From the NCBI GenBank assembly GCA_029567505.1, contig JAKPXO010000168.1, forward strand, positions 2,828-66,827: DNA of 64,000 nt. The letters run 5' to 3'. Numbering within the stretch: position 1 is the stretch's first letter; the number at the start of each line of letters is the position of its first letter. The DNA comes from Acidobacteriota bacterium. GTDB lineage: Bacteria; Acidobacteriota; Thermoanaerobaculia; UBA5066. Under the pieces are notes generated by a model that was not told the origin of the DNA, did not search any database, and saw only the letters and a list, made by a program, of their open reading frames with translations. Position numbers and translations under genes: made by a program. This document shows, piece after piece, positions 2,792-41,388 of this stretch.

Positions 2792-5700
2792 CTACGCGCG
2801 AGGCGCGGCGGCGGCCTGCCAGTGGCGGCCGTCGGAGGCGTCGAACGAGACGAGGAGACCAAGGGAGGCGAGGCTCTCGAGGACGGGCTCCACGTCCTTC
2901 GGCTTCGCCTTCGCGAAGGCCGAAGTCACGGCGGCGAGCGAGCGGGGGGACGGCGCGCGGGCCATCAGGTCGCGGACGGCGGCGATCCGCTCGGGGAGCG
3001 CCTTCGGCCACGGGAGCGGCGCGGCCGGCTTCGCGGCCGGCTCCTCCTCCTCGTCATCTCCGCCCGGAAGAGTCTCCTGCGTCGCCGCCTTCGCGCCGCC
3101 CGGGTTCTGGAACTCGGGGCGGAGCCAGCGGACGAGGCCGCGCCTCTCCTCCTCGGCTCGCTCGGCGTTCAGCGCGACGAGCCGCTCGAGGATCTCCTCG
3201 TCGGTCAGCGTCGACGGCCAGCCGTAGGCGTCGAAGACCGCCGCGTCGAGGTCGTCGTGGATCTGCTTCAGGACGGAGACGAGCCCTTGCTCGTGGATCA
3301 CCTTCTCCTTCGCCGTCAGCGCCTCCCCCGACCGGAGCTTCTCGAGGACGTTGTACATCCCGGTGATCGTGAGGCCGGGATGGAGAGCCTGCTGGCGCTT
3401 GCGGTGCGCGTCGAGGGCTTCGCCGAGGGAGCGGATGAGGGCGGTTTGGGCGGGGGTGGAAGGCGGGAAGGGGAAGAGCAAGAAGCATGGCCCGTTCTGA
3501 TAGCGGGGGTCATTGCCCGCGCCCATTCGCCCGCCTCTCCGAAATGCCCATGTTACATGGACGCGAGAAGAAAGGACGCCGAGGTGCCAGGCATCGTCCG
3601 TGGCGATCCCGGCCAAGGAACCATCAGCCAGGGTTCCCGGGAGTGGAAGGAACACGAACGCTCTGTGTTTTGCGACTTCGGAAGTGGCGATGAACCGTCG
3701 AAGCCCCTTCAACGCCCGCCGCAGCTTCGGCGCGTTCTCGCCGAACAACCACCAGTTTCGCCGCCTCGTATCCCGCTTGTTCTGATCCCTTTCGGGCTTC
3801 ACAAGGTGCAAGAGCCGCTGATAACCGGCAGCGAACTCATTTCGCGCTTGCGCCTCGTCCAACCCGTAGAAATCCACGACGTAACGAACGCCTTCGGTCT
3901 GCGTCAGATCCCGGCCGGCAACGTAGCGCGGAAGAAAGGCCTCGGCGCGATGATCAACGGCGATCAAGTTGTCGCGTTCATCAGAGGTCAGAAGGAACCC
4001 GTCGCCCACGAGTTTGCAGCCCTGAAGGCACAGGTCTTGGTTCGCGACGAGCGCCCGAGTGCCGGAAACCGACGGTCCGGTCGTCAGGTCCGCGTGAATC
4101 GTGCCCTTCCGCGATCTGAAATCGACTCGACTTGAACCGTCATCCAGCTGCTCCTCATCGATGAGCGAGAGGAGGATGCCGGCGCCGGAGGATTGGGAGA
4201 GAACCGTCATCGCGACCCGAACCGCGGCCCCATCCGTCGAATCGACCCACGGGTGATCTGGTACCGCGAAGGCGAGATGGCATGCCGACGAAGCCACGAG
4301 GTGTCGCTGAACCACGCGTCGGTTGAACGTCTGCGTGATGCTGTTCGTCGTGATCAGGCCGAACCGCGTCAGCCTTTCTGCCCGCACCAGCGACGCCGCA
4401 TGGTTCCACCAGTACATGACGAGGTCCGCCGTCTCCGGCACGTCGTCGTGCGCGCGCCTCAGCGCCTCGACGTAGCCGTCCCCCAGCGCCGTCCGCATCC
4501 GCTTGTTCCCCACGAACGGCGGATTCCCCACCACGAACTCCGCCTCCGGCCATTCCGCCTTCCGCGGGTTCACGTACCTTTCCACCACCACCCGCGCGGT
4601 CTCGTCGGGGATCGGCTCCCCCGTCACCGGGCTCGGTTTCGTCGTCTCGCCGTCCCAGCGGGTGACGGGCTTCCCCGCCGCGTCCGTCTCCGGCTCGACG
4701 CGGTCCCAGGCGAGGACGGCGTCGCGGCACTCGATGTTCCCGTAGTCGCGGAGGACGGGCTCGTCGGGGGCGGTGTCGCCGTGGGTCCGGAAGTGCCACT
4801 GGAGCCAGCCGATCCAGAGGACGAGCTCGGCGATCTCCTTGGCCCAGCGCTTCACCTCGATTCCGAGGAGCTGGCGGGGCGTGACGCTGACGCCGTGGAG
4901 GTCGAGGAAGCCGCTCGCCCCGGTCTCGGGGCGCAGGTCGCGGAGGAGCCTCACGACCTCGGCCTCCAGCCGCTTGAAGAGGTCGAGCGTCACGTAGAGG
5001 AAGTTGCCGGTGCCGCAGGCGGGGTCGAGGACGCGCGTCGCGCAGAGCTTCTCGTGGAAGGCGCGGACGGCCCTCTCGGCCTCGGCGATCTTCGTCTCCG
5101 AGCCCTCCTCGACGAGGGTCCTCACGAGCGTCCGCACGACGTCCCACTCGGCGCGGAGCGGCTCCTCGACGGTCGCCCTCACGAGCCGCTCGACGTAGGC
5201 GCGCGGCGTGAAGTGGGCGCCGAGGGCGTGGCGCTCCTTCGGGTCGAGGGCCCTTTCGAGGAGCGTCCCGAAGATGGAGGGCTCGACGTTCTTCCAGTCG
5301 CAGCGGGCCGCCTCGTGAAGCATCTCGAGCTGGCGGCGCGTGAGGGCGAGGGCCTGCGGCGCCGCGAAGAGGCCGCCGTTGAAGCGGAGGAGCTCCCCCT
5401 CGAAGCCGAACGACCCGCCCCGGTTCATCGTCGTCCAGAGCGCCTGGACGTCGGGCGCGAACGTCTCCGGGTGCGGGATCCAGCGCTCGTAGAGGGTCCT
5501 CGTGAAGAGGCGGTTCGGGAGGAGGCCGACGTCCTCGGCGAACATCGTGAAGATGGCCCGCATCAGGAACGTCGCGACCGCCTCCGGGGAATGCCCCGCC
5601 TCGGCCAGCTCCTTCGAGAGGCCGGCGAGGTGCGCCGCGACCTCGCGCGTGACGGCGGTCGTCCGCCGGAGCGGGTCGAGGGAGAGCGGCTCCTCCCAGA

Positions 5701-6214
5701 CGGCGTGGAGCGTCGGGAGGAGCTCCTCGAGGTCGGCGAAGAAGGTGCGGTTCGCGAGGGCGTTCGGGAACGGGTGGTAGACGCGCGAGCCGTCGAAGGA
5801 GGCGTAGAGGTCGACGCAGTGGCCGATGTCGACGACGAGGAGGAACGGGGGCGGGGCGTCGAGCGTCTCGACGTAGCGCTTCGCCTGCCCGAGGGCGTCG
5901 GACATCATCCCGTGCCAGGCGTTCGTTCCGCGCCGCGTCCGGCCCGTCCGGGTCGCGTTCGAGCCCTGCTTGGCCTCGAGCAGGAAGCGTCCGTGCCGGT
6001 AGAGGTCGATCTTCCCGATCGTCGGCCTGCCGGCCGCGTGAAGGAGGACGGCCGGCTTCTCGTAGACGTAGAGGTCCTTCTCCGCGTCGCCCGTCGCCGG
6101 GTCGGGACGGGGCACGCCGAGGAGGTCGCAGAGGTCGTTCAGGAACGGGTCTTTGTTGGCCCGTTCTCCCCCCTCGTTCCCGAGCCAGCGGGCCTGGAAG
6201 GCGGCGATGTCCAT
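2792..6214 (-). CDS. MmeI-family single-chain restriction–modification enzyme (nuclease + N6-adenine MTase + TRD)
   Basis: 1140 aa. The N-terminus carries a PD-(D/E)xK-like motif (IDLYRHGRFLLEAKQG). An AdoMet motif I (VLDPACGTGNFL) and catalytic motif IV (NPPF) are present. A long C-terminal target-recognition region follows. The overall architecture matches MmeI/Type IIL enzymes. Confidence 0.8.
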   Translation of the reverse strand: MDIAAFQARWLGNEGGERANKDPFLNDLCDLLGVPRPDPATGDAEKDLYVYEKPAVLLHAAGRPTIGKIDLYRHGRFLLEAKQGSNATRTGRTRRGTNAWHGMMSDALGQAKRYVETLDAPPPFLLVVDIGHCVDLYASFDGSRVYHPFPNALANRTFFADLEELLPTLHAVWEEPLSLDPLRRTTAVTREVAAHLAGLSKELAEAGHSPEAVATFLMRAIFTMFAEDVGLLPNRLFTRTLYERWIPHPETFAPDVQALWTTMNRGGSFGFEGELLRFNGGLFAAPQALALTRRQLEMLHEAARCDWKNVEPSIFGTLLERALDPKERHALGAHFTPRAYVERLVRATVEEPLRAEWDVVRTLVRTLVEEGSETKIAEAERAVRAFHEKLCATRVLDPACGTGNFLYVTLDLFKRLEAEVVRLLRDLRPETGASGFLDLHGVSVTPRQLLGIEVKRWAKEIAELVLWIGWLQWHFRTHGDTAPDEPVLRDYGNIECRDAVLAWDRVEPETDAAGKPVTRWDGETTKPSPVTGEPIPDETARVVVERYVNPRKAEWPEAEFVVGNPPFVGNKRMRTALGDGYVEALRRAHDDVPETADLVMYWWNHAASLVRAERLTRFGLITTNSITQTFNRRVVQRHLVASSACHLAFAVPDHPWVDSTDGAAVRVAMTVLSQSSGAGILLSLIDEEQLDDGSSRVDFRSRKGTIHADLTTGPSVSGTRALVANQDLCLQGCKLVGDGFLLTSDERDNLIAVDHRAEAFLPRYVAGRDLTQTEGVRYVVDFYGLDEAQARNEFAAGYQRLLHLVKPERDQNKRDTRRRNWWLFGENAPKLRRALKGLRRFIATSEVAKHRAFVFLPLPGTLADGSLAGIATDDAWHLGVLSSRVHVTWAFRRGGRMGAGNDPRYQNGPCFLLFPFPPSTPAQTALIRSLGEALDAHRKRQQALHPGLTITGMYNVLEKLRSGEALTAKEKVIHEQGLVSVLKQIHDDLDAAVFDAYGWPSTLTDEEILERLVALNAERAEEERRGLVRWLRPEFQNPGGAKAATQETLPGGDDEEEEPAAKPAAPLPWPKALPERIAAVRDLMARAPSPRSLAAVTSAFAKAKPKDVEPVLESLASLGLLVSFDASDGRHWQAAAAPRA

Positions 6215-6301: not shown

Positions 6302-7201
6302 CTACATTCCCATACCGGAGCCCGATCCCATCCCCAGGCCCGAGTTCATCATGCTCCCCATCACGACGTAGCCGTCGTTCGTCAGGTTGTCGTTCACGAC
6401 GGCGTAGGCCATGACCATCCCGCCCGCGCCGCGGTCGAGGCGGACCCGGAGCTGCAGGCCGGCACCGCCCGACGGGAAGCGCGAGGCGACGCCAGCGAGG
6501 ACGTCGTCCACCTGCGTCGACGAGTAGCCGGCGATCCGGAAGGGCCAGCTCTTCGGTCCCGCTCCGGCGGGAGCGCTGCCGTCGGCGTCGACGACGTCCA
6601 GCGTCCCGGTCACGGCCGTCGCGGTCGTGTTCACGACGGTGGCGTTCACGCGGGCGCCGGGCTGAGGCAGGAGGCCGAGCATGACCATCTCGAACTGGCG
6701 GTCGTCCCAGGTGCCCGCCATCGGCATCGCCGTGAGCGACATGCGCTGGGGCATCCCCATGAACGCGAGACCGTACGCTCCGGCCCCCGATTGGTTGTAG
6801 ACGCGGGCCACCGCGGCGATCGGGACCGTGGCGCTGATCCGGAGGTTCCCGAACGCTTTCGTCAGGCCGAGCTGCGCGGAGAGGAGGTCCGGGAGGAAGG
6901 TCACGGGCTGCGAGAGCGCCACAGTGGCCGTCACGGCCGGATCGGCGGTGGCGGCGTTCGCCGGGTGGAACGCGATCGTCGCCGTGCCGGTGCCGCTCGC
7001 GCGGATCCAGAGGTCGGTGACGAAGAAGGCGCCGTTCTTCCCGTCGCCTCGGACTCCGGCCGGGACGATGAGGGATTCGGAGCCATTCGACATCATGTCG
7101 CCGGGGCCGTTCCACATCCCACCTCCGCCCATCTGCGCGAGGGCGGGGGACGTGAGCAGCGTCAGGACGAGGAGGCTGGCCGGGCCGAGCGCCTTCTTCA
7201 T
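6302..7201 (-). CDS. secreted hypothetical protein with Met/Gly-rich termini (possible Cu-binding)
   Basis: Signal peptide MKKALGPASLLVLTLLTSPALA. Met-rich N-terminal region (MGGGGMWNGPGDMMSNG) and C-terminal tail (MGSMMNSGLGMGSGSGMGM). Its ATG overlaps the stop of the cytochrome c gene (ATGA). Confidence 0.6.
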   Translation of the reverse strand: MKKALGPASLLVLTLLTSPALAQMGGGGMWNGPGDMMSNGSESLIVPAGVRGDGKNGAFFVTDLWIRASGTGTATIAFHPANAATADPAVTATVALSQPVTFLPDLLSAQLGLTKAFGNLRISATVPIAAVARVYNQSGAGAYGLAFMGMPQRMSLTAMPMAGTWDDRQFEMVMLGLLPQPGARVNATVVNTTATAVTGTLDVVDADGSAPAGAGPKSWPFRIAGYSSTQVDDVLAGVASRFPSGGAGLQLRVRLDRGAGGMVMAYAVVNDNLTNDGYVVMGSMMNSGLGMGSGSGMGM

Positions 7202-7815
7202 TTCATTCTCCTTTCAGGCGAGGACAGAGCCGTCGAGCCGGAGCCGGCGAGGAACGCCTCGATCTGGCGGGCCTTCTCGAACTCGGCGGGGCTCTTCGGG
7301 TTCAGCGCTTCCATCTCCGCGAGCTCCGAGGGCGTCAGCCCGGGAAGGTGGCGGATGAAGTGAACGAGCTCCCACGTGCCGACGTCTTCCTTGGGCGTCC
7401 CGTCGCCCCAGGCGGGCATGCCGGTGAGGCGGATTCCGTTCCGGATGATCGAGAAGAGCTCTCCGTCGGTGAGGCGCTGGGTCTCGCCGCCGCGCATGTC
7501 GGGCGCGCGCGGATAGAGGCGCTGGCCGATCGGCGTCCGGCCGCTCCCGTCGTTTCCGTGGCAGCCGGCGCAGTGGTCGGCGAAGTGGCGGCGCGCCCGG
7601 GTGAGCACCTCGGGGCTCGCGGCGACGGGGTTCGGAACACGGCGTATCGCCTCCGGGGTCGCCCACCGCCGGAAAGCCCGAGCCACGACCTCCTCGGCCC
7701 CGGACGGCTCGTCTCGCGCGCTGAAGCCGCGACGGACGGCGGCGGCGAGCGTGTATCCGCCCCACACGGCAGCGAGGGCCGCCGCGACCAGGAGGACTCG
7801 TGTCGTCCGCCTCAC
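7198..7815 (-). CDS. class I c-type cytochrome (one CxxCH)
   Basis: N-terminal membrane anchor or signal peptide. A single haem motif CAGCHG is followed by a Met ligand region (GMPAWG). Confidence 0.7.
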   Translation of the reverse strand: MRRTTRVLLVAAALAAVWGGYTLAAAVRRGFSARDEPSGAEEVVARAFRRWATPEAIRRVPNPVAASPEVLTRARRHFADHCAGCHGNDGSGRTPIGQRLYPRAPDMRGGETQRLTDGELFSIIRNGIRLTGMPAWGDGTPKEDVGTWELVHFIRHLPGLTPSELAEMEALNPKSPAEFEKARQIEAFLAGSGSTALSSPERRMK

Positions 7816-7843
7816 GGGTCCCCTCCCGCCGTCCGCCTCGTCA

Positions 7844-8263
7844 TCACGCCTTCTTCTTCTCGAGGTGCATGCCGCACTTCGGGCACTTGCCCGGGCCCGC
7901 GCTCTTCACTTCCGGGTGCATCGGGCAGGTCCAGACGACCTCCTCCGACGCTCCCATCCGGACCACCTTCGCTTCGAGCCCCGCCTTCCCGTGGGCGACC
8001 TCGACGGCCACGCGCAGCCCGGCCTTCAGGTCGGTCCTCTTCGCCTCCGTCGTCCCACGGAAGTAGGTGGTCGCGGAGGTGAGCGTGACCGACACCGTCT
8101 TCCCGTCCGGGTCGGCGACGTCGAGGCGATTCCCCTCGATGTGCGCCACCGTGCCGAGGATCGGCTCCATCCCGTGAGCGTGGCCGTCGTGCGCCGTGGC
8201 GAGACCCGGCGCGACGCCGAGCGTGAGAGCGAGGGCCGTGAGGGCAAGGGTCCTTCCGCGCAT
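7844..8263 (-). CDS. periplasmic protein with C-terminal heavy-metal-binding domain (CPMHPE...CPKCGM)
   Basis: Signal peptide, then the C-terminal motif CPMHPEVKSAGPGKCPKCGMHL. The same motif is found at the N-terminus of the CusB/CzcB adaptor encoded downstream. Confidence 0.7.
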   Translation of the reverse strand: MRGRTLALTALALTLGVAPGLATAHDGHAHGMEPILGTVAHIEGNRLDVADPDGKTVSVTLTSATTYFRGTTEAKRTDLKAGLRVAVEVAHGKAGLEAKVVRMGASEEVVWTCPMHPEVKSAGPGKCPKCGMHLEKKKA

Positions 8264-8417
8264 GTCGAATCCTCCTGTCGAGGGGCGTCGGCCGCCGGCG
8301 GCGCCCGCGGCCCCTCTCGTGGCCGGAAAAATACGGCTCCGACCTTAGAGAGCGATTAGAGCGGCCCGAAGCACCGTCTCTCATCGGTTTCCAAGGTTCG
8401 CCTCCCATCCTCGGGCC

Positions 8418-8927
8418 ATGTGCACGGCGACCCGTCCGGATGCTCTGCTCCTGGTCGAGGACGACGTCTCGCTCGCCATCTGTGTCGCGGAGTTCCTGTC
8501 GAGACGCGGACACGACGTCGAGCTCGCTTTCGATCTCGCCTCCGCGTCGTGCGCCCTCGCTCGGCGGGCCTGGCCGGCCGTCGTCACCGACGTCGACCTC
8601 TCGGGCCCGAGTGGCGCGGAAGGCCTGGAGGTCGTGACGGCTGCGGCGGCGCTGCGGCCGCGCCCCGCGATCGTCGTCTGGAGCGGGTGCGTGAGCGAGC
8701 GCCTCCGGCGCGAGGCGCTCCGGCTCGGCGCGGACGCCGTCCTGGAGAAGGGGAGCCTGTGGGAGCTCGAGGCGGAGTTCGCTCGTCAGCTCGCGAGACG
8801 GCAGCCGACCGGGGCGGTTGATGGAGCGGACCGGATGCGGGACCGACCCGCCGCGGAAGGAGGCAGCGAACGCGGGAGACCGGAACGCCCGGCGGAGGCG
8901 GCCACGGTGGGGGGAGGCGCGCGGTGA
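8418..8927 (+). CDS. stand-alone response-regulator receiver (REC) protein
   Basis: LLVEDD acidic pocket, a phospho-acceptor Asp in VVTDVDL, and a conserved Lys (LEKG). No output domain. The stop overlaps the next start (GTGA). Confidence 0.7.
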   Translation: MCTATRPDALLLVEDDVSLAICVAEFLSRRGHDVELAFDLASASCALARRAWPAVVTDVDLSGPSGAEGLEVVTAAAALRPRPAIVVWSGCVSERLRREALRLGADAVLEKGSLWELEAEFARQLARRQPTGAVDGADRMRDRPAAEGGSERGRPERPAEAATVGGGAR

Positions 8928-9595
8928 GCGCGACCGAGCCGTTCGTCCCGGCGCTGAGGTTCCATGCCCTCACCGGTCTCTACGACCCCCTGATGTCTTT
9001 TCTCGTGAACGAGGCGACGCTCCGGCGCCGCACGTTGAGCCTCCTCCGGCCGGAGCCCGGAGAGAGGGTCCTCGACCTGGGGTGCGGCACGGGCTCCCTC
9101 ACGGTCCGGCTCAAGCAGGAGTTCCCGCGGGTCGAAGTGGTCGGTTGCGACGTGGACCCGGGAGCGCTCGGTCTGGCCCGGCGGAAGGCCGCCGAGGCCG
9201 GGGTCTCGATACGGTGGTGCCTCGGGCCCGCCCACGACCCGCCGCTCCCGGACCGATCGGTGGATCTCGTCACCTCGACGCTGCTCTTCCACCACCTCCG
9301 GCCGGACGGCAAGCGCGCTGCGCTGGCCGCCGCCCTGAGGCTGCTCGAGCCGGGCGGACGGCTCGTCGTCGTCGACTTCACGAGGCCATCGGGTTTCCTT
9401 CGTCGGATCGCCTTCTCCGGAGTCCGGCTCCTCGACGGTCTCGAGGTCACGGCGGACCACGCGGCGGGGCGGTTCGCGGAGATCGTGGAGTCCGCCGGGT
9501 TCGAACGCGTGACGGAGGCCGATCGCCTCGACACGCCCGTCGGCACGATCTCCTTCCTCACCGCGGCCCGCCGCCGCGAGGGTCGCGGCGGATGA
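8924..9595 (+). CDS. class I SAM-dependent methyltransferase (Methyltransf_11/25-like)
   Basis: Motif I VLDLGCGTG and the LLEPGGRLVV motif. It is coupled at both ends by 4-nt overlaps. Confidence 0.75.
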   Translation: MSATEPFVPALRFHALTGLYDPLMSFLVNEATLRRRTLSLLRPEPGERVLDLGCGTGSLTVRLKQEFPRVEVVGCDVDPGALGLARRKAAEAGVSIRWCLGPAHDPPLPDRSVDLVTSTLLFHHLRPDGKRAALAAALRLLEPGGRLVVVDFTRPSGFLRRIAFSGVRLLDGLEVTADHAAGRFAEIVESAGFERVTEADRLDTPVGTISFLTAARRREGRGG

Positions 9596-10536
9596 GGAGC
9601 CTCCGCCTCCGCCTCCGCGCCTGGGTCGTGGTGACGACGACCGTCGCCGTCGGAGCGGTGACGGCGGCGGGAAGCCTCGAGGAGCGACGGCAGATCCGAC
9701 GCGCCGAGTCGGCGTACATCGGTGCGTTCCTCGAGCACCTGGCTGCGATGCCGGAGCTTCGGAGCGACTCTTCCACGGTGCAAGCGCACCTCGGTGCCCT
9801 GTCGGGCTCCCTCGCGAGGGCCGGGGGAAAGGTCGCGCTCGTAGCCTTGAAGCCTTCCGATCCGGTCCCGCTCGGCGCCGGGGCCGTCGCCTGCCAGCGT
9901 CTTTCCCTCTCGGACGGCGAGTGGGCGCTGCACTACTGGAGCGACGGCCGATACGTCCGGGCGCAGGTCCGGCGGGCGTTGCTCACGCGGCTCCTGCTCG
10001 CCGTCGGCCTCGTCCTCGCCATCGTCGCAGGGCTCGAATGGATGCTCCGTCGAAACCTCCTCCGACCGCTCTCGACGATCTCGCGCCAGATCGAGCGGAT
10101 CACGGAAGGCGGAGGCTGGCTCGCGCACGTTCCCGACACGGATGAGGAGCTCCAGCGGCTGACACGAGCGCTTCGGGCGCTCGGACCCGGGCTCGAGGAG
10201 CAGACTCGCCAGTGGATCGAGACCGAGCGACGCGTCGCCGCGGCGTCGGTCCTCGCGGGAGTCCGGGCGGTGACCCTCGAGCCGCTTCGATCCGCGCAGC
10301 TCGAGCTGAGCCTGGCGGAGGCGGCTCTCACCACTGACGCCGCGACGAAGACGCGGCTGCGACGCGCTGCCCGTGCCGTCCACCGGTTGACCGAGACTCT
10401 GCGCGACGCGGAGGCCACCTGGTTCCGCGCTCGTGGCGGCGCCGGCGTCTCGACGGACGAGAGCCGTGCCCGAGCGGCGAAAGGGGAGGCCCGTGCTCTT
10501 CGCCCGACGGCCTCAGGGAGCGTGGAGCCCGGCTGA
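9592..10536 (+). CDS. membrane sensor with HAMP domain and degenerate HisKA-like region, no ATPase domain
   Basis: ATG overlaps the upstream TGA. Two TM segments flank a ~120-aa periplasmic region. HAMP (MLRRNLLRPLSTISRQIERITEGGG) is followed by a coiled coil. A HisKA-like stretch VTLEPLRSAQLEL has Thr where the phospho-His should be. No HATPase_c domain. Confidence 0.6.
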   Translation: MRSLRLRLRAWVVVTTTVAVGAVTAAGSLEERRQIRRAESAYIGAFLEHLAAMPELRSDSSTVQAHLGALSGSLARAGGKVALVALKPSDPVPLGAGAVACQRLSLSDGEWALHYWSDGRYVRAQVRRALLTRLLLAVGLVLAIVAGLEWMLRRNLLRPLSTISRQIERITEGGGWLAHVPDTDEELQRLTRALRALGPGLEEQTRQWIETERRVAAASVLAGVRAVTLEPLRSAQLELSLAEAALTTDAATKTRLRRAARAVHRLTETLRDAEATWFRARGGAGVSTDESRARAAKGEARALRPTASGSVEPG

Positions 10537-11359: not shown

Positions 11360-11884
11360 TTAGTGCTCTCCGTGTCCGGACCGTCCGGAGCCGCACCCGC
11401 CGCCTCGTCTCGGTGGCGCGGCGTCATCGTGTCCTTCGCCCCCGACCCCAGAGGCGACGCCGAGCGTCCGTTCCGCGGCCGCGATCGCGACGTCGAAGCT
11501 CTCGGCGAATGCCGGCAGCGACGCGTCTGCGAGGCCACGGAGGTTCGCGACGCTCTCGCGGGCGGCGGCCGACACCTTCCCCGCGAACCCGGAGCCACCG
11601 TCCCCCGTGAAGTCCGCGTCCACGAGCGCGGCCCGGAGCCCTCGATGCACGCCGGCATACTCGTCGACCGCACGGTTCAGACGATCGAGGTCGCGTGAGC
11701 GGGCGGCTGCCCGAACGGCCCGCAGTGCGGACGCCTCATCGCGGAGCAGAGCCCGAGCGCCGCGGGCGGAGGCGGACGGGGGCTCGGTCCGCGGTGCCGG
11801 CCCCGGCTCGCCGTGAACGTGCTCCTGTGCCGGTGCCGAGGCGTTGACCAGCAGGACGAAGAGGAGGATCGCCGGGGTGCGCAT
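11360..11884 (-). CDS. secreted hypothetical protein with His-rich ends
   Basis: Signal peptide MRTPAILLFVLLVNASAPAQ, then EHVHGEP. The C-terminal tail is GEGHDD...GCGSGRSGHGEH. It is the last gene of the cus string. Confidence 0.5.
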   Translation of the reverse strand: MRTPAILLFVLLVNASAPAQEHVHGEPGPAPRTEPPSASARGARALLRDEASALRAVRAAARSRDLDRLNRAVDEYAGVHRGLRAALVDADFTGDGGSGFAGKVSAAARESVANLRGLADASLPAFAESFDVAIAAAERTLGVASGVGGEGHDDAAPPRRGGGCGSGRSGHGEH

Positions 11885-11895
11885 CGTTCGCCTCC

Positions 11896-12375
11896 TCAGA
11901 AGACGACGTTCTTGTGGTCCATGCCGCCGCAGCCGTTCTTCGCGAACGGGCGGTTGCAGCCGCCCTTGAAGCAGGCGTCACCCGTGTAGCCGGCCGGCCC
12001 GATGAACTTTACCCAGTCGAGGACCGCCGACTTGAGCTCGGCGGCGTTCGCCCCCTTCACGACGAGCATGTAGTTCGAGAGGCCCCAGATCGTCATCGCC
12101 ATGTTGCACGGGCAGCAGCAGGTCTTCATCGAGAACTTCTTGCAGCAGACCGTCGGGATGGCGGAGAGGACGTCATCTTTGATCTTCTCCTGCTCCGGCG
12201 CGAGGCTCATGTCGGCGTACCGCATGAACTCGAGCGTCTGGGCCTTCACGTCCTTGAAGACGGGCGTCTTCGAGGCGGCCCTGGACGGGGCGGTCGGGCC
12301 GGCCAGGGCCGAAGCGGAGAGGACGGCGGCCGCGAGGGCGGCGGTCCAGCGAGGGAGGGGGGAGGCGTGATTCAT
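11896..12375 (-). CDS. secreted Cys-rich hypothetical protein (CCKKFSMKTCCCPC motif)
   Basis: Signal peptide. Clustered cysteines (VCCKKFSMKTCCCPC, CFKGGC, GCGG). It lies 40 nt downstream of the cusA stop on the same strand. Confidence 0.55.
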   Translation of the reverse strand: MNHASPLPRWTAALAAAVLSASALAGPTAPSRAASKTPVFKDVKAQTLEFMRYADMSLAPEQEKIKDDVLSAIPTVCCKKFSMKTCCCPCNMAMTIWGLSNYMLVVKGANAAELKSAVLDWVKFIGPAGYTGDACFKGGCNRPFAKNGCGGMDHKNVVF

Positions 12376-12414: not shown

Positions 12415-15400
12415 TCAGGCGGGAAGTGCCGCGCCCTCGAGGCTCGGCTCCGAGTGATCGGGCCCGGGTTTCGGGAGGCTTCGCTGCTTCCAGAGCATGT
12501 AGATGGCGGGATAGACGAGGAGCTCCAGGAGAAACGACGTCGCGAGGCCGCCCACCATCGGGGCGGCGATCCGCTTCATGACGTCGGAGCCGGCCCCGAC
12601 CGACCACATGATCGGGATGAGCCCGAGCATCGCGGCGAAGACGGTCATCGCCTTCGGGCGGACGCGCTTCACGGCGCCGTGGATGATTGCCTCGACCAGC
12701 TCGGCCTTGTTCCGCAGGAGACCCCTGGCCTTCGCCTCGTCGTAGGAGAGGTCGAGGAAAAGCAGCATGAAGATGCCCGTCTCGGCGTCGAGGCCCATGA
12801 GGGCGATGATCCCGACCCAGACGGCGATCGACGTGTTGTAGCCGAGGATCCAGAGGAACCAGACCGCGCCGATGATCGAGAAGGGGACGGCGAGGAGGAC
12901 GATGAACGTCTTCATCGCCGACTTCGTGTTCATGTACATCAGGAGCCAGATCAGGACGAGCGTGATCGGGATGACGACCTTCAGGCGTTCCCGCACGCGG
13001 ATCATGTTCTCGAACTGGCCGCTCCAGACGAGCGTGTACCCCTGCGGGAGCGTGACCCGCTCCGCGACCGCCTTCTTCGCTTCCTCGACGAAGCCGCCGA
13101 CGTCCTCCTTCGAGGTGTCGAAGTCGACGTAGACGTAGCCCGAGAGGAGCCCGTTCTCGTTCCGGATCATCGAGGGGCCCTGGACGAGCCGGATGTCGGC
13201 GAGCTGGCCCATCGGGACCTGGGCTCCCGACATCGTCGGGACGAGGACCCGCTCGAGGCGCGAGACGTCCTCGCGAAGCTCGCGGGGGTAGCGGAGGGAG
13301 ACGGAGTACCGCTCGCGCCCCTTGATGACCGTCGTGATCGGCTCGCCTCCGATCGCCGTCATCACGACCATGTTCGCGTCGTCGACCGTCAGGCCGTAGC
13401 GGGCGAGCTGGTCGCGCTTGAGCTCGAAGTCGATGAAGTAGCCGCCCGCGACCCGCTCGGCGAACGCCGATCGCGTGGCCGGTACGCTCCTCACGGCGGA
13501 CTCGACCTCCTTGCCGATCCGCTCGATCTCCTCGAGGTCCGAGCCGAAGACCTTGATCCCGATCGGCGTGCGGATCCCGGTCGAGAGCATGTCGATGCGG
13601 GCCTTGATCGGCATCGTCCAGGCATTCGTCGTCCCTGGGATCTTCAGCGCCCGGTCCATCTCGTCGACCAGCTCCTCGTGGGAGATCCGGTCCCGCCAGA
13701 CGTGCCGGAAGACCGACGCGAGCCACTCGGGCGCCCACCCGCTGTACCAGCGTTCGCGGGGGCGCCACTCGCTCTCGGGCTTGAGGATGACGGTCGTCTC
13801 CATCATCGAGAACGGGGCCGGGTCGGTCGCGCTGTCGGCGCGGCCGGCCTTCCCGAAGACGCGCTCGACCTCCGGGAACGATCGCAGAATCCGATCCTGC
13901 ACCTGCAGGAGACGGTCGGCCTCGGTCACCGAGATGCCGGGCAGGGTCGTCGGCATGTAGAGGATGCTCCCCTCGTAGAGGGGCGGCATGAACTCCGAGC
14001 CGAGCCTCAGGAAGACCGGCACCGTCGCCGCCATCGCGAGGAGCGCGGCCGCGATCGTCGTCTTCGGGTGCCTCAGGACGAGGCGGCAGGGGGGCTCGTA
14101 GATCCGGTGGAGGAGGCGGCTGACGGGGTGCTTCTCCTCCGCGTAGTACGTCCCGACCGTGATCTGGTTGACGACCCAGGCGAGCCACTTCGGCCGGAAG
14201 CGGAAGTAGTCCATCCGGGCGAAGAGCATCCGCATCGCGGGGTCGAGGGTGATGGCGAGGAACGCCGCGATCGCCATCGCGAGGTTCTTCGAGTAGGCGA
14301 GCGGCTTGAAGAGGCGCCCTTCCTGGTCGACGAGCGTGAAGACGGGGAGGAAGGCGACCGCGATGACGAGGAGCGAGAAGAAGACGGACGGCCCGACCTC
14401 CATGAGGGCCTCGAGACGGACCTTGTGGAAGTCTCCGGGCCTCCCCCCGTCGTTCCAGAGCTGGAGCTTCTTGTAGGCGTTCTCGACCTCGACGATCGCC
14501 CCGTCGACGAGGACGCCGATCGAGATCGCGATGCCCGCGAGCGACATGATGTTGATCGTCAGCCCCATCTGCCCGAACGGGATGAAAGCGAGGACGACCG
14601 AGATCGGGATCGTGAGGATGGGGACGATCGCGCTCGGGAAGTGCCAGAGGAAGATGAGGATGATGATCGAGACGACGATGATCTCCTCGATCAGCTTGGC
14701 CTTCAGGTTCTCGACCGAACGCTCGATCAGGTCGGAGCGGTCGTAGGTCGTGACGACCTTGACGCCCTTCGGCAGGGACGGCTCGATGTCCTTCAGCTTC
14801 TTCTTCACCCGCTCGATGACGTTGAGGGCGTTCTCCCCGCTCCGCATCACGACGATGCCGCCGACGACATCCCCCTTGCCGTCGAGGTCCGCGATCCCGC
14901 GCCGGATCTCGGGGCCGAGCGAGACCCGCCCGACGTCTCCGATGGTGAGCGGCGTACCGCGTTCGTTCGTCTTCAGGACGACCTGCTCGAGGTCCTTCAC
15001 GCTCTTCAGGTACCCGCGCCCGCGGACCATGTACTCCCGGCCGGAGAGCTCGATGAGCCGCCCGCCCACCTCCTCGTTGCTCATCCGGATCGCCTCGGCG
15101 ACGCGGGAGAGCGGCACGCCGTAGGCGGAGAGGACGTTCGGGTCGATCGTGACCTGGTATTGCCGCTGCGTCCCGCCGACCGTGGCCACTTCCGCCACGC
15201 CCGGCACGGACTGGACCGCGTACTTGAGGAACCAGTCCTGATACGACCTCAGCTCGTCGGTCGTGTTCGTCCCCGACTCGTCGACGAGGGCGTACTGAAA
15301 GACCCACCCGACGCTCGTCGCGTCGGAGCCCATCTCGGTCTTGACCCCCTGGGGGAGGCTCCCCTGGATCTTGGAGAGGTATTCGAGGACGCGCGAGCGG

Positions 15401-15744
15401 GCCCAGTAGAGGTCCGTGCCGTCCTCGAAGATGACGTAGACGTAGGAGAAGCCGAAGTCGGAGGAGCCCCGGATCGTCTTGACCTTCGGCGCGCCCAGGA
15501 GCGCGGTGACGATCGGGTAGGTGACCTGGTCCTCGATGATGTCGGGGCTCCGGTCCCACTTCGAATAGATGATGACCTGCGTGTCGGACTGGTCCGGGAT
15601 CGCGTCGAGGGGCGTGCGCTTCATGACCCAGACGGCGATCAGGACCGCGACGACGTACAGGGAGAGGACGAGGTACTTGTTCTCGGCCGAGAAGCGGATG
15701 ATCCGCTTGATGACTCCGCCTTCTCCGGGGCTCGCGTGACTCAT
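12415..15744 (-). CDS. cusA: CusA-type heavy-metal efflux RND permease (HME-RND)
   Basis: The N-terminus MSHASPGEGGVIKRIIRFSAENKYLVLSLYVV...DAIPDQSDTQVIIYS...YVYVIFEDGTDLYWARSRVLEYL is close to E. coli CusA. 12 TM segments. RBS AAGGAGG sits before the ATG. The track ORF 12415..17115 runs through into cusB only because it starts upstream. Confidence 0.95.
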   Translation of the reverse strand: MSHASPGEGGVIKRIIRFSAENKYLVLSLYVVAVLIAVWVMKRTPLDAIPDQSDTQVIIYSKWDRSPDIIEDQVTYPIVTALLGAPKVKTIRGSSDFGFSYVYVIFEDGTDLYWARSRVLEYLSKIQGSLPQGVKTEMGSDATSVGWVFQYALVDESGTNTTDELRSYQDWFLKYAVQSVPGVAEVATVGGTQRQYQVTIDPNVLSAYGVPLSRVAEAIRMSNEEVGGRLIELSGREYMVRGRGYLKSVKDLEQVVLKTNERGTPLTIGDVGRVSLGPEIRRGIADLDGKGDVVGGIVVMRSGENALNVIERVKKKLKDIEPSLPKGVKVVTTYDRSDLIERSVENLKAKLIEEIIVVSIIILIFLWHFPSAIVPILTIPISVVLAFIPFGQMGLTINIMSLAGIAISIGVLVDGAIVEVENAYKKLQLWNDGGRPGDFHKVRLEALMEVGPSVFFSLLVIAVAFLPVFTLVDQEGRLFKPLAYSKNLAMAIAAFLAITLDPAMRMLFARMDYFRFRPKWLAWVVNQITVGTYYAEEKHPVSRLLHRIYEPPCRLVLRHPKTTIAAALLAMAATVPVFLRLGSEFMPPLYEGSILYMPTTLPGISVTEADRLLQVQDRILRSFPEVERVFGKAGRADSATDPAPFSMMETTVILKPESEWRPRERWYSGWAPEWLASVFRHVWRDRISHEELVDEMDRALKIPGTTNAWTMPIKARIDMLSTGIRTPIGIKVFGSDLEEIERIGKEVESAVRSVPATRSAFAERVAGGYFIDFELKRDQLARYGLTVDDANMVVMTAIGGEPITTVIKGRERYSVSLRYPRELREDVSRLERVLVPTMSGAQVPMGQLADIRLVQGPSMIRNENGLLSGYVYVDFDTSKEDVGGFVEEAKKAVAERVTLPQGYTLVWSGQFENMIRVRERLKVVIPITLVLIWLLMYMNTKSAMKTFIVLLAVPFSIIGAVWFLWILGYNTSIAVWVGIIALMGLDAETGIFMLLFLDLSYDEAKARGLLRNKAELVEAIIHGAVKRVRPKAMTVFAAMLGLIPIMWSVGAGSDVMKRIAAPMVGGLATSFLLELLVYPAIYMLWKQRSLPKPGPDHSEPSLEGAALPA

Positions 15745-15755
15745 CGCGGCCTCCT

Positions 15756-17237
15756 TTAGTGTGCGTGGCCGGCGGGGGGCGGCGCGGGGGCCGGAGCGGC
15801 CGCCGGAGCGCGGGCGCCCTCCGGGCTGCCGGCGGGCTTCGCGGCGGGCGCTGGCGCCATCGCGGCGAGGGCCGCCTTCAGGCGCGACTCGGAGTCGACG
15901 AGGAAGCTCGCGCCGCGCGCGAGGACGTCGCCGGCCGAAAGGCCCGACGTCACCTCGACGAGGCCCTCGGCCTGGTCGCCGACCTCGATCTCGCGCGGCA
16001 CAAGGCGGCCCTCCGCCTCCACGAGGAAGACGACCTTGCGCTGGCCGCTGTCGATGACGACGTCGTCGGGAACGACGAGGGCCTGGCGGGGCGCACCCTC
16101 GAGGAGGACCTGCGCGAACATCTCCGGCTTGAGCGTCCCGCCCGGGTTCGGCAGCTCGAGGCGGACCTTGACGGTGCGGGTCGCCTCGTCGACGGCCGGG
16201 TAGACGTACGTGACGCGTCCCGACCAGGAGCGCCCGGGCCAGTACGCGAGGGTGACGGTCGCCTTCTGCCCGACGGCGAGGCGCGGCAGCTCGTACTCGT
16301 AGACGTCGGCGAGCACCCAGACGGTCGAGAGGTCGACGATGTCGAAGAGCGTGTCGGAAGGCATGACCTTCATTCCGTGATAGGCCATTCGGCCCGTCAC
16401 GAATCCCGAGATCGGGGCGTAGACGTTGAGCGTCCGGGTCGGCTCGCCGCGCCTTTCGAGCGCGTCGACGTCGGCCGGGCGGATGTCCCAGAGGAGGAGC
16501 CGCTGCCTCGCGGCGGCGAGGAGGTCCTCCCCTCCCTTCGCCACGCCGTCGGCGCGAGATCCGGCCAGGGACCGCGACGCCGCGAGGGCGAGGAGGTACT
16601 CCTTCTGTGTCGCGTAGAGGTCCGGGCTGTAGACCTTCGCGAGGACCTCTCCCTTCCGGACGAACTTCCCGGTGAAGTCCGCGGTGACGTCCTCGACGTA
16701 CGCCTCGTAGCGCGTGTGGACGTGGTGGACGCGGCGCTCGTCGTACGCGACGCGGCCGACGGTGCGGATCGACGTCGCGAACGGGGCGTGCTCGACCGTG
16801 ACCGTCCTGAGGCCCAGGAGCTGCCGCTTCGTGGCGTCGATCGTGACCGGCGCGAGCCCGGCCGGCCCCGCGGCGCCGTCGAGCTCGTCCTGGTAGACCG
16901 GGACGAAGTCCATCCCCATCGCGTCCTTCTTCGGCGTCGGGGAGGTCTCGTTCGGGTCCATCGGCGAGCGGTGGAACGCGACGCGCCGCTCCCCGGGGGC
17001 GGAGGGGGCCGCGGCCTGGGCGGCCGGCTTCTCCTCCTCGATCGGAACGAGCTTCATCCCGCAGATCGGGCAGTCGCCCGGGCCGTCCTTGACGATCTCC
17101 GGGTGCATCGGGCACTGATAGCGCTCGACGTGGGCCGAATGGGACCCGCTCTTCGAGCAGGCGGTCAGCAGGGTGACGGAGCCGGCGGCCAGAGCGAGCC
17201 CGGCGGCGAGGGCGACGGAGAGAGTCCGCTTGTTCAT
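15756..17237 (-). CDS. cusB: CusB/CzcB-type periplasmic adaptor with N-terminal heavy-metal-binding domain
   Basis: Lipoprotein signal (LLTAC). CPMHPEIVKDGPGDCPICGMKL motif. HlyD-type barrel-sandwich and beta-barrel regions follow. Confidence 0.9.
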   Translation of the reverse strand: MNKRTLSVALAAGLALAAGSVTLLTACSKSGSHSAHVERYQCPMHPEIVKDGPGDCPICGMKLVPIEEEKPAAQAAAPSAPGERRVAFHRSPMDPNETSPTPKKDAMGMDFVPVYQDELDGAAGPAGLAPVTIDATKRQLLGLRTVTVEHAPFATSIRTVGRVAYDERRVHHVHTRYEAYVEDVTADFTGKFVRKGEVLAKVYSPDLYATQKEYLLALAASRSLAGSRADGVAKGGEDLLAAARQRLLLWDIRPADVDALERRGEPTRTLNVYAPISGFVTGRMAYHGMKVMPSDTLFDIVDLSTVWVLADVYEYELPRLAVGQKATVTLAYWPGRSWSGRVTYVYPAVDEATRTVKVRLELPNPGGTLKPEMFAQVLLEGAPRQALVVPDDVVIDSGQRKVVFLVEAEGRLVPREIEVGDQAEGLVEVTSGLSAGDVLARGASFLVDSESRLKAALAAMAPAPAAKPAGSPEGARAPAAAPAPAPPPAGHAH

Positions 17238-17247
17238 CTTTCGATTC

Positions 17248-18582
17248 CTACATCTTTGAGGGAGAGGCCGACGAGGCCGGGCCGGCGGACGGCATGGCCG
17301 GAGTCATCGCGCCGGAGCCGCGCTCCAGGGAAAGCTCGTCGAGGTCGGCCCGGGCCCGCAGGAGGCCGGCGAGCCGGCCCACCGCGGAGCGGCGGTCGGC
17401 GAAGTAGGTGCCAAGAGCCTCGAGGACGGAGACGAAGGGGACGGAGCCGGTGCGATAGCTCGCGAGCGCCGATTCGACGGAGAGCCGGTCCTGCTCGAGG
17501 AGGCCTTCGGCGTCGAGCCGGGCCTCGGCGGCGAGGCGGCGGAGGCGGACCAGGCGCTCTTCCGTCAGGGCCTCGACGAAGCGGCGCAGGGAGGCCTCGG
17601 TCGCGGCGGCGGCCGACGTGAGCCGTTCCGCTTCGGCGATGAGGGGGCGCTGCTTCCGTCCCGCCCAGAGCGGGACGGTGACACCGACGCTCGCGGACCA
17701 CATGAGGGGGAGACGGCCCCGGTTCATGTAGCCGGCGGAGGCGACGAAATCGGGCTTCAGGTTCCGGCGGGCGAGGTCGGCGCCCAGCCGCTCCCGCTCC
17801 TTCGCGAGCGCCGCCTCTCGAAGCTCCGGCGTCGCCTCGAGCGCGCGCGCGATCGACTCCCGGGTCGACGGGACGAGCAGCAGCTCACCCGGAACGAGCC
17901 GTGCCTCGGTCGGGACGGGCGCGTCCGCCGGGCGGTAGAGGAGCTGGCGGACCTCGGAGAGGGCGGTCTCCTCGGCCGCGCGGTCCGCCTCGCGCTGCTG
18001 GGCCAGCCGCGTCCGCTCGGCTTGCGCGCGAAGGACGTCCTGCTGCGTGGCGAGGCCCGCGGCGTAGCGGGCCCGGCTCACCTCCTCGATCCCCTTCCAG
18101 GTCGAGAGCTGCTCCTCGACGAGGCGGAGGTTCTCTCGGGCCTCGAGGAGGCCGGCGTAGGCGCGGCGGACGGCGCCCGTGAGCGAAAGGACCGCCCGGT
18201 CCGGGAGCGTGGCGGCCCGCTCGGCGTCCTTCGTGGCGATCTCCTCGGCGAGCCGGAGCTTCCCGGGGAACGGGAGCTGCTGCTCGGCCATCAGGGAGAG
18301 CCGCGTCATCTCCATCTCGCCCAGCGAGAAGGCCGTGCCGTCGTTCTCGTACGAGAGGGACACCATCGGGTCGGGGAGCGCGCCCGCGGGTCGGACCCGC
18401 TCACGTGCGGCGGACGCGAGGTCCCGCGCCGCGCGCAGCTCGGGGTTCTTCTCGAGGGCCTCCGCCACGAGGCGGTCCACCTCGGTGGACGCCGAGGCCT
18501 GGGCGTGGAGGAGCTGGATGGGGAGGAGCAGCAGGGCGGCCGAGAAGAGCGCCAGGCTTCGGCCACGCGGTCGTACGGGCAT
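17248..18582 (-). CDS. cusC: TolC-family outer-membrane efflux protein (CusC/CzcC-like)
   Basis: Signal peptide. Two outer-membrane-factor repeats with the typical coiled-coil composition. Confidence 0.85.
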   Translation of the reverse strand: MPVRPRGRSLALFSAALLLLPIQLLHAQASASTEVDRLVAEALEKNPELRAARDLASAARERVRPAGALPDPMVSLSYENDGTAFSLGEMEMTRLSLMAEQQLPFPGKLRLAEEIATKDAERAATLPDRAVLSLTGAVRRAYAGLLEARENLRLVEEQLSTWKGIEEVSRARYAAGLATQQDVLRAQAERTRLAQQREADRAAEETALSEVRQLLYRPADAPVPTEARLVPGELLLVPSTRESIARALEATPELREAALAKERERLGADLARRNLKPDFVASAGYMNRGRLPLMWSASVGVTVPLWAGRKQRPLIAEAERLTSAAAATEASLRRFVEALTEERLVRLRRLAAEARLDAEGLLEQDRLSVESALASYRTGSVPFVSVLEALGTYFADRRSAVGRLAGLLRARADLDELSLERGSGAMTPAMPSAGPASSASPSKM

Positions 18583-19172: not shown

Positions 19173-19201
19173 GATTAGAGGCGGATTAGCCGGACGATTT
19201 C
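19173..19201. promoter_or_regulatory. GATTAG direct repeats (11–12 bp phasing) in the cusC/cusR divergent intergenic region
   Basis: GATTAGaggcgGATTAGccggacGATTTC. Helical-turn spacing is typical for OmpR/PhoB-family regulators. Confidence 0.3.
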
Positions 19202-41188: not shown

Positions 41189-41224
41189 CACGGAGCCCGC
41201 TCCGTCCCATATTCCCGCGCGACG

Positions 41225-41305
41225 GATGCCTAGGGGTGGCCGGGAAACCGGCCTGAGAGCAGACCCTCGAACCTGATCCGGGTCATACCGGCGAAGGGAA
41301 CGGCA
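41225..41305 (+). ncRNA. TPP (THI-box) riboswitch
   Basis: atgcctaGGGGTGGCCgggaaaccGGCCTGAGAgcagACCCtcgAACCTGATCCGGGTCATACCGGCGAAGGGAAcggc matches the conserved TPP aptamer. The CUGAGA bulge and the ACCUGAUCnGGnUAAUnCCnGCGnAGGGA pyrophosphate-sensor helix are both present. Downstream hairpins (cggaagcGGGTgcttccg; ccccgcGTgcgggg) directly abut the RBS GGAAGGAGG. Confidence 0.8.
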
Positions 41306-41388
41306 AACGGAAGCGGGTGCTTCCGCAAACCTCGAGAGACCCCGACGGATCCGCTTCGATCCCCGCGTGCGGGGAAGGAGGCGCTTCC

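Follow-up and report, generated by a model that had tools for sequence, protein, structure and literature searches.

A histidine-less, kinase-less sensor encoded with a receiver and a methyltransferase in a copper-resistance island of Acidobacteriota

Results

A coupled operon of receiver, methyltransferase and sensor genes

We analyzed a stretch of 64,000 nucleotides from the genome of an uncultured Acidobacteriota bacterium (assembly GCA_029567505.1, contig JAKPXO010000168.1, positions 2,828 to 66,827 of the forward strand). This stretch, with a G+C content of ~71%, is referred to as the window, and all positions are those of the window. Our subject is an operon of three genes, encoding proteins that we call REC, MT and P3, and above all the membrane sensor P3.

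8418..8927, + strand: REC gene, stand-alone receiver, 169 aa
8924..9595, + strand: MT gene, class I S-adenosylmethionine (SAM)-dependent methyltransferase, soluble, 223 aa
9592..10536, + strand: P3 gene, histidine-kinase-like membrane sensor lacking both the kinase domain and the phospho-acceptor histidine, 314 aa

Consecutive genes overlap by 4 nt, and the overlaps can be read in the sequence as GTGA at 8924-8927 (REC/MT) and ATGA at 9592-9595 (MT/P3). Third-position GC content is 0.85 for REC, 0.89 for MT and 0.84 for P3, as compared to 0.72 for the region; hence, all three look coding. The frame signal is unbroken across the three genes, and a scan with Rfam and for terminators found nothing within the operon. 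An earlier note, made from the sequence alone, had described three coupled open reading frames with these overlaps inside a copper-resistance island. The reading frames, the sequence and the third-position GC content bear out the coupling, and the genes nearby, for an HMBD protein, a cytochrome c, CusCBA and a CusR/CusS-like pair, bear out the island.

P3 has the architecture of a sensor kinase without the means to autophosphorylate

P3 is a membrane protein of the dimeric-sensor type, with a first transmembrane segment (TM1), a periplasmic domain, a second transmembrane segment (TM2), a HAMP-like domain and a DHp-like helical hairpin. Its gene contains the following features.

9727..9759, + strand: periplasmic motif F-L-E-H49-L50-A-A-M53-P54-E-L, in the top part of the helix continuing from TM1
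10042..10206, + strand: HAMP-like domain, residues 151-205, whose connector, G-G-G-W-x-x-x-x-P-x-x-D-x-E-L, is unusually well conserved
10207..10440, + strand: DHp-like hairpin, residues 206-283, probably a degenerate HisKA domain
10267-10269, + strand: codon of Ala226, which occupies the phospho-histidine column

The two transmembrane segments appear as hydropathy peaks centred near residues 20 and 139. An AlphaFold2 model (pLDDT 71.7) consists of a long TM1 helix, a periplasmic helix with three strands, a helix spanning TM2 and HAMP, and a hairpin with helices at residues 201-244 and 250-278; HAMP and hairpin are reproduced when only this fragment is modeled. The protein ends ~30 residues beyond the hairpin. 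Against the Pfam HAMP family (PF00672), P3 scores 18.4 bits, which is below the threshold of 25, and the match is positioned directly after TM2. HAMP was detected in 17 of 17 P3 homologues (best E 1e-4), the P3 family profile aligns to the HAMP domains of real kinases with a library-wide E of ~1e-4, and there is a proline at residue 159, as expected for HAMP. No Pfam family reaches its cut-off for P3, neither Pfam nor NCBIfam has a P3 model, and databases label the protein “hypothetical”. A protein identical to P3 is recorded for Thermoanaerobaculia, and the window matches genomes of this group that were assembled from metagenomes. A search of the literature found no description of the P3 family.

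What is the relationship of the hairpin to the HisKA domain of histidine kinases? Pfam searches found neither HisKA nor HATPase_c in P3 or in any of the 17 homologues, with HATPase_c sought at E<=10. Nonetheless, in two kinases (P0116 and P0119) the P3 family profile aligns through HAMP into the H-box, where sgIREaTLePL of the P3 family faces SGVAHELNNPL of P0116 and AHVSHEVRNPL of P0119. A comparison by hhalign of the post-HAMP region (30 P3-family sequences) with seven HisKA segments gave the same register over 63 columns, with an E of 0.002 and a probability of 14%. Three independent alignments place Ala226 (in G-V-R-A-V-T-L-E-P-L) in the phospho-histidine column. Across 38 P3 homologues this column holds R, E, A, S, D, K, Q and other residues, and never His (0/38); the same 38 diverse proteins have no conserved cytoplasmic His. 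Foldseek searches of the PDB with the whole AlphaFold2 model or the HAMP and hairpin fragment gave no match below E=1. Kinase DHp entries recur among the weak matches, which we do not count as evidence. Searching PDB sequences with the P3 family profile gave chance-level matches only, and hhalign of the P3 family with the CusS-like kinase of the window gave a non-significant alignment that ends at the end of HAMP. Together, these observations suggest that the hairpin is a degenerate DHp domain, likely but not proven to derive from HisKA.

P3 cannot autophosphorylate, because it has no phospho-acceptor His and no ATP-binding (CA) domain. The profiles and the model thus uphold the description in the earlier note of a sensor-kinase topology with HAMP, a DHp-like hairpin and no CA domain, in a protein unable to autophosphorylate. 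That note had also proposed a His-to-Thr substitution. This was an error of register: the column corresponds to Ala226, not to Thr228, and is variable across the family. The phosphatase motif of HisKA domains is H-E/D-x-x-T/N. The H+4 position of the P3 family is E, G or D, so a role for P3 as a phosphatase is not supported.

P3 represents a conserved family under purifying selection

A profile search that exhaustively covered 1.8 billion representative sequences retrieved 104 proteins. The P3 family comprises about 100 clusters at 50% identity, nearly all of similar length (270-360 aa, ~300 aa). Approximately 60 of the 104 proteins are full-length relatives within this range, and every labelled family member is from Acidobacteriota. 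The weakest of the 104 matches (E ~1e-4) are genuine kinases with HAMP, HisKA and HATPase_c. We assessed conservation in the 38 diverse homologues, at 26-59% identity. Three segments are best conserved: the periplasmic L-x-H49-L50-A-x-M53-P-E-F; the HAMP connector G-G-G-W...P..D.EL, in which W176, D184 and E186 are invariant; and L-G-P-x-L-E-x-Q...W-I-E-A-E-R-R. In the periplasmic motif, L50 is present in all 38 homologues, H49 and M53 in 36/38 each, and P54 in 30/38. In periplasmic sites for Cu(I)/Ag(I), a His and a Met close to the membrane's outer face are the classic ligands. Judged by this pattern of residues, H49 and M53 are candidate Cu(I)/Ag(I) ligands.

The ratio of non-synonymous to synonymous substitution rates (dN/dS), computed against an orthologous locus with an 89% identical P3, is 0.18 for TM1 and the periplasmic part, 0.06 for TM2 and HAMP, 0.16 for the hairpin and 0.85 for the C-terminal tail. 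P3 belongs to a conserved family that is subject to purifying selection and is found in copper loci. In the comparison with one relative (L010; L numbers denote loci in other genomes), dS of the P3 gene rises from 0.10 over the N-terminal part to 0.52 over the hairpin, an approximately five-fold difference that hints at past recombination inside the gene.

REC is a receiver with an intact active site

REC scores 35.1 bits against the Pfam Response_reg family (PF00072; cut-off 30.2). E14, D15, D58 and K111 are invariant in five orthologues, and Ser or Thr is kept at position 89, which is S89 in the window. In an alignment to the NtrX receiver, the phospho-acceptor Asp, Ser/Thr and Lys positions are likewise matched. 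The receiver with intact phospho-acceptor residues that the earlier note had read in this gene is thus confirmed by family score and conserved active site. REC consists of a receiver core of ~120 aa, with a dN/dS of 0.34, and a variable, low-complexity tail of the last ~50 residues that evolves near neutrality. We infer that REC is a genuine phospho-receiver whose phosphate necessarily comes from a kinase encoded elsewhere. The CusS-like kinase encoded at 19902-21320 is the obvious candidate phosphodonor.

MT is a class I methyltransferase of the small-molecule type

MT matches the Pfam families Methyltransf_25 (1e-24), Methyltransf_11 (2.6e-21) and Ubie_methyltran (1.9e-16). It belongs to class I by its Methyltransf_25/11 score of 87.5 bits (cut-off 27) and by a VLDLGCGTG SAM-binding motif, of the GxGxG type, that is invariant in the family. 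The best NCBIfam model is CpaM (NF043040; 98.9 bits, cut-off 180), and MT is below every curated NCBIfam cut-off, including those of the UbiE subfamily (64.9 against 158.35) and arsenite methyltransferase (49.1 against 263). The Rossmann-type SAM fold and VLDLGCGTG motif are shared with class I methyltransferases of the UbiE and Methyltransf_11/25 kind; unlike the curated CpaM and UbiE families, MT is below their cut-offs, and it lacks ArsM-like cysteines. Among solved structures, MT is closest to N-, C- and O-methyltransferases of small molecules, and CheR is not among the 22 Pfam families that match at E<=1. The assignment in the earlier note of MT to the small-molecule type and not to CheR therefore agrees with both the family matches and the nearest structures. 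The dN/dS of MT is 0.23. We rejected ArsM-like metalloid methylation on the basis of the sub-cut-off score and the lack of any conserved Cys in the MT family apart from that in the GCG motif.

Methyltransferases of the MT family recur in copper loci with CopA, CsoR, CusF, YHS or RND genes (L019, L020, L021/L022 and L001-L006), in metagenome-assembled genomes (MAGs) of Acidobacteriota and Actinomycetota. Paralogues are often grouped, with up to about six within 10 kb in L021. A literature search found no role for methylation in copper resistance and no description of copper-linked class I methyltransferases.

The operon shares a direct-repeat box with the CusR-like promoter region

The operon is part of an island of copper-related genes with the following features.

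8345..8361, + strand: direct-repeat box TTAGAGAGCGATTAGAG (TTAGAG-N5-TTAGAG), putative site of an OmpR-family regulator
8378..8394, - strand: degenerate, inverted second copy of the box, TTGGAAACCGATGAGAG, with 3 mismatches, not significant alone
6302..8263, - strand: divergent operon sharing the box, encoding an HMBD protein (7844-8263), a cytochrome c (7198-7815) and a 299-aa protein (6302-7201)
12415..18582, - strand: CusCBA-type heavy-metal RND efflux genes (CusA, CusB and outer-membrane factor)
12415 to ~15744, - strand: CusA, TIGR00914 1017.8 bits (cut-off 701.45); upper end estimated from a 1109-aa orthologue in L010
15756-17237, - strand: CusB
17248-18582, - strand: outer-membrane factor
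19175..19191, + strand: second copy of the box, TTAGAGGCGGATTAGCC (TTAGAG-N5-TTAGCC), two mismatches, 40 nt upstream of the CusR-like start
19231-19905, + strand: CusR-like OmpR-family regulator, Response_reg and Trans_reg_C, TIGR01387 262.8 bits (cut-off 279.2)
19902-21320, + strand: CusS-like heavy-metal sensor kinase, HAMP, HisKA and HATPase_c, TIGR01386 306.9 bits (cut-off 292.55)

The CusCBA-type genes also match HlyD_D23, HMBD and OEP. In the divergent operon, the HMBD match has an E of 1.2e-12 and the Cytochrome_CBB3 match one of 2.1e-11. The CusS-like gene starts 9.4 kb downstream of the P3 stop codon.

The box at 8345-8361 is a perfect match in the 154-nt divergent intergenic region between the HMBD and REC genes. 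It is conserved at the same place in L001-L009, and with one mismatch in L010. Across L001-L010 it precedes REC, MT-P3 and an MT orthologue, and it lies before several divergent copper-related operons. The stretch CTCTCATCGGaTTCCAAGG of the inverted copy is conserved in L003, L007 and L010. A search of the window at <=2 mismatches gave 3 matches, as compared to 0.51 expected; the only other intergenic one is that at 19175-19191, which is identical upstream of the orthologous CusR-like gene in L010. Because the box is common to the promoter regions of the trio and of the cusRS-like genes, the trio would belong to the regulon of the CusR-like regulator. The box probably defines a Cus-type regulon in this clade of Thermoanaerobaculia.

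Within the divergent operon, the 299-aa protein (6302-7201, - strand) has a signal-peptide-like N-terminus and Met/Gly-rich ends (MGGGGMW..., ...MGSGSGMGM), matches no family and is always co-transcribed with the HMBD protein and cytochrome c. It is likely to be a periplasmic copper-handling protein.

The trio is conserved in close relatives, and its parts occur separately elsewhere

The coupled REC-MT-P3 order recurs where P3 is 89% identical (L010 and L011) and where it is 58% identical (L007-L009). In all five loci it is divergent from the HMBD, cytochrome c and 299-aa genes, and Cus genes follow. The HMBD, cytochrome c and 299-aa genes are divergent from REC or MT in L001, L003, L005 and L007-L011. 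In L001-L005 the order is MT-P3-MT2, with REC elsewhere in the island, always divergent from an HMBD gene. REC adjoins another MT paralogue in L001 and L002, once directly after such a paralogue. In L006 no MT adjoins P3 upstream; the MT orthologue is 4.5 kb away. Overall, MT and P3 are adjacent or overlap in 10 of the 11 close loci.

A profile search with a narrower P3 alignment identified seven more distant loci (L012-L018), with P3 homologues of 29-41% identity in Vicinamibacteria and other Acidobacteriota. These homologues adjoin CusCBA, YHS-domain or CopA genes, and in L014-L018 P3 is next to or just downstream of CusCBA genes. Within the contig stretches examined, there is no MT or REC beside them. 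Of the 18 P3 loci examined, 16 have a copper-related context, and the remaining two (L012 and L013) are on short contigs. MT homologues of 45-47% identity are located in three copper loci, two of them in MAGs of other phyla, with an RND pump and a YHS protein, with DUF305, CopA and CsoR, or with CusF and several MTs. No P3-like or two-component gene was called in these three loci. A 197-aa membrane protein encoded between two MT genes in L021 was considered as P3-like and rejected: it is polytopic and His-rich instead. Because the distant P3 genes have no MT or REC neighbor in the stretches examined, and no P3-like gene was called near the MT homologues, coupling of the trio is confined to a single clade. 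Both P3 and MT are copper-island components by themselves, and the three-gene operon is a merger particular to that clade.

The earlier note had staked its reading on the trio being conserved as a unit and on P3 being related to HisKA. The trio is kept down to 58% P3 identity, and the hairpin does align with HisKA, weakly. The same note had proposed that a methyltransferase replaces the kinase chemistry, and nothing supports this, given the distant P3 genes without MT or REC and the MT homologues without P3.

One related MAG encodes a 736-aa hybrid histidine kinase (L023, 17726-19936, on the contig that also contains L006, JADHED010000316.1). A P3-type sensor and HAMP (233 bits against P3) make up the N-terminal 214 residues, and the remainder consists of a real HisKA domain (GGVAHDFNN), HATPase_c and two receivers, the last of which shows 37% identity to REC and has the same unusual VLEK[G/S]S motif. 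It is possible that this protein links P3-type input to a REC-type receiver via a kinase core. Its origin could be a recent gene fusion or, alternatively, a chimeric assembly.

Discussion

What is the function of a sensor that retains the shape of a histidine kinase but has neither the His nor the ATPase domain? We propose, with about an even chance of being right, that REC, MT and P3 form an accessory module of a Cus-type copper/silver system in which P3 is a pseudo-kinase that acts by protein contacts. P3 would bind periplasmic Cu(I)/Ag(I) via the near-invariant His49/Met53 motif, and the signal would be relayed through HAMP to the DHp-like hairpin. Since the hairpin cannot be phosphorylated, it would serve as a docking or dimerization surface. 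It could dock the co-encoded REC, as DivL docks DivK~P, or it could pair with the CusS-like kinase, as a CA-less ChrS does with HrrS. In either case, P3 would tune phosphate flow in the CusRS-like pathway. REC would be phosphorylated by a kinase encoded elsewhere, with the CusS-like kinase the foremost candidate, and transcription of the trio would probably be driven by the CusR-like regulator at the TTAGAG-N5-TTAGAG box. MT is best read as a cytoplasmic, co-regulated effector rather than a signaling enzyme. The earlier note had offered, as its alternative, that the sensor modulates the CusS-like kinase; this alternative fits better than its first proposal, on account of the box common to the trio and cusRS-like promoters.

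In favor of this proposal are the copper context of most P3 loci, the conserved His/Met motif, the box common to the two promoter regions, the intact active site of REC, the hybrid kinase of L023 and the precedents of DivL and ChrS. Several observations weigh against our proposal. The relationship of the hairpin to HisKA is statistically weak, by the hhalign values (E 0.002, probability 14%) and the lack of any Foldseek match below E=1. The hairpin is poorly conserved across the wider P3 family, and the HAMP connector is the best-conserved cytoplasmic part; therefore, the interaction surface may be HAMP instead. Adjacency of MT and P3 in 10 of 11 close loci exceeds what co-regulation alone requires, and P3 of the wider family occurs without neighboring REC or CusRS genes in the stretches examined. 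The hybrid kinase is a singleton in the protein database, from one MAG, and could be a chimera of assembly. Lastly, all steps past the architecture of P3, whether interaction, metal binding or phosphotransfer, are ones that we infer.

In line with the main idea of the earlier note, P3 could instead be the membrane sensor subunit of the translationally coupled MT, acting in trans to switch MT activity or location in response to periplasmic metal. A variant has P3 methylated in the manner of a chemoreceptor, with REC modulating the complex. In the window, as in 10 of the 11 close loci, MT is immediately upstream of P3, adjoining or overlapping it, whether the arrangement is REC-MT-P3 or MT-P3-MT2; REC, too, adjoins an MT paralogue in L001 and L002, and P3 has no output domain of its own. 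However, the distant P3 homologues of L012-L018 have no MT neighbor in the stretches examined, the 45-47% identical MT homologues are in copper loci in which no P3-like or two-component gene was called, and the MT orthologue of L006 is 4.5 kb from P3. Moreover, MT has no CheR match, its nearest solved relatives act on small molecules, and inspection of the P3 hairpin by eye, rather than by a formal search, found no paired Glu/Gln methylation motif conserved in the family. We consider a sensor-subunit role unlikely, and it keeps the standing it has because MT-P3 adjacency is conserved throughout the close clade. It is more doubtful still that a kinase-less P3 controls MT and/or REC in trans, with methylation of a protein or small signal molecule, and not His-Asp phosphotransfer, carrying the output. 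If that were true, the copper linkage of the MT family across phyla would represent an unrecognized methylation step in copper homeostasis.

An alternative explanation is that the three copper-island genes are functionally independent and have no more in common in this lineage than a promoter. P3 would then act outside two-component signaling, for example in partnership with the Cus pump or the HMBD/cytochrome c proteins, for which it could bind metal in the periplasm or provide a scaffold. REC could be a sink for phosphate from CusS, and MT an enzyme that detoxifies or modifies a small molecule. Indeed, each of the three genes is found in some copper loci in the absence of both others, and in L014-L018 P3 is beside or just downstream of CusCBA. 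In contrast, P3 is most constrained in the cytoplasmic HAMP (dN/dS 0.06, invariant GGGW...D.EL), which argues for transmembrane signaling rather than passive metal binding. In addition, the coupled trio is maintained down to 58% P3 identity, and the hybrid kinase joins a P3-type sensor, a kinase core and a REC-like receiver. We regard independence of the three genes as rather improbable. It is extremely improbable that P3 is a decaying pseudogene of a histidine kinase minus its C-terminal half. P3 does stop where the CA domain would begin, and its last ~31 residues are near neutral (dN/dS 0.85), but the family comprises about 100 clusters with a common ~300-aa architecture, every domain is under purifying selection, the hairpin included, and third-position GC is coding-typical throughout. 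Furthermore, the sole kinase-fused relative found is a singleton. We therefore rejected the pseudogene explanation, which family size and dN/dS effectively refute.

Pseudo-histidine kinases and single-domain receivers are known concepts. To our knowledge, only a handful of pseudo-histidine kinases have been described, among them DivL and laboratory truncations. CusS/CopS-type kinases (TIGR01386) resemble P3 in having two transmembrane segments around a periplasmic domain, a HAMP or HAMP-like domain directly after TM2 and a helical hairpin. Both are encoded in Cus-type copper/silver islands, and both have a periplasmic domain with conserved His and Met. Unlike these kinases, P3 lacks the phospho-acceptor His and HATPase_c, and its periplasmic domain is shorter (~95 aa), with no detectable sequence similarity to theirs; TIGR01386 gives P3 11.9 bits. 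Chemoreceptors paired with CheR are also reminiscent of P3 and MT, in that a transmembrane sensor with HAMP and a cytoplasmic hairpin is encoded next to a SAM methyltransferase. Pfam finds no MCPsignal match in P3, and the sole match to an NCBIfam model of methyl-accepting chemotaxis proteins covers the TM2/HAMP stretch (E 0.014). With no CheR match, no MCPsignal match and no Glu/Gln methylation motif seen by eye, we rejected this analogy.

Two other proteins provide closer parallels for signaling by contact. DivL of Caulobacter is a pseudo-histidine kinase without kinase or phosphatase activity that binds DivK~P on its DHp docking face (PMC4211667). Like P3, it is histidine-kinase-like and has no kinase activity, and docking of REC by P3 is a candidate parallel. 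Unlike P3, DivL retains its CA domain, carries a Tyr in place of the His, is a cytoplasmic protein with PAS domains and acts in control of the cell cycle. ChrS_CA-fs of Corynebacterium glutamicum, which is CA-less, heterodimerizes with the paralogous kinase HrrS, and HrrS phosphorylates the regulator, raising expression of an exporter (PMC9491836). ChrS_CA-fs and P3 are both membrane sensors without a functional CA domain, and ChrS_CA-fs matters for resistance. It is a laboratory-evolved frameshift that keeps the His, whereas P3 represents a natural, conserved family without His and CA.

The P3 family is thus a whole natural family that has dispensed with the His and the ATPase domain while keeping the sensor, a strongly constrained HAMP and a DHp-like hairpin. 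Being tied to copper/silver efflux loci in Acidobacteriota, it offers a clean system for the study of transmembrane signaling without catalysis. Two further leads are testable: a conserved direct-repeat box that would define a Cus-type regulon in the clade, and a family of class I methyltransferases found repeatedly in the copper loci of two or more phyla.

Other features of the window

The minus-strand cus operon begins with a 165-aa open reading frame (18644-19141) that matches no family and has a good ribosome-binding site; the CusR-like gene is divergent from it, and the two have the box region in common. Immediately downstream of CusA, in the window and in relatives, is a conserved gene for a 159-aa Cys-rich, secreted-looking protein (11896-12375, - strand) with clusters such as CCKK...CCCPC and no family match. 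A gene for a 174-aa protein (11360-11884, - strand), also without a family match, accompanies it in the window, L003, L006 and L007-L009.

In L001-L005, a Ser/Thr kinase gene and a YHS/HMBD CopA gene are next door to the island genes. The kinase gene (Pkinase) is in the island of L001, L002, L003, L005 and L006, immediately upstream of YHS/HMBD CopA in four of these, and MerR or MerT genes are near the island in the same group. Pkinase, MerR and MerT were not found in the part of the window examined.

The copper island is bordered by a gene for a 1140-aa MmeI-type restriction-modification enzyme (2792-6214, - strand) with N-terminal, helicase-spacer, methyltransferase and target recognition (TRD) domains, which is also present in L010 and L011. 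Farther along, a second kinase is encoded at 39851-41188. A TonB-dependent receptor gene (41317-43647) is immediately preceded by a thiamine pyrophosphate (TPP) riboswitch (41222-41317, + strand; Rfam RF00059, 61.5 bits) and followed by a gene for a PnuC-family transporter (43796-44245).

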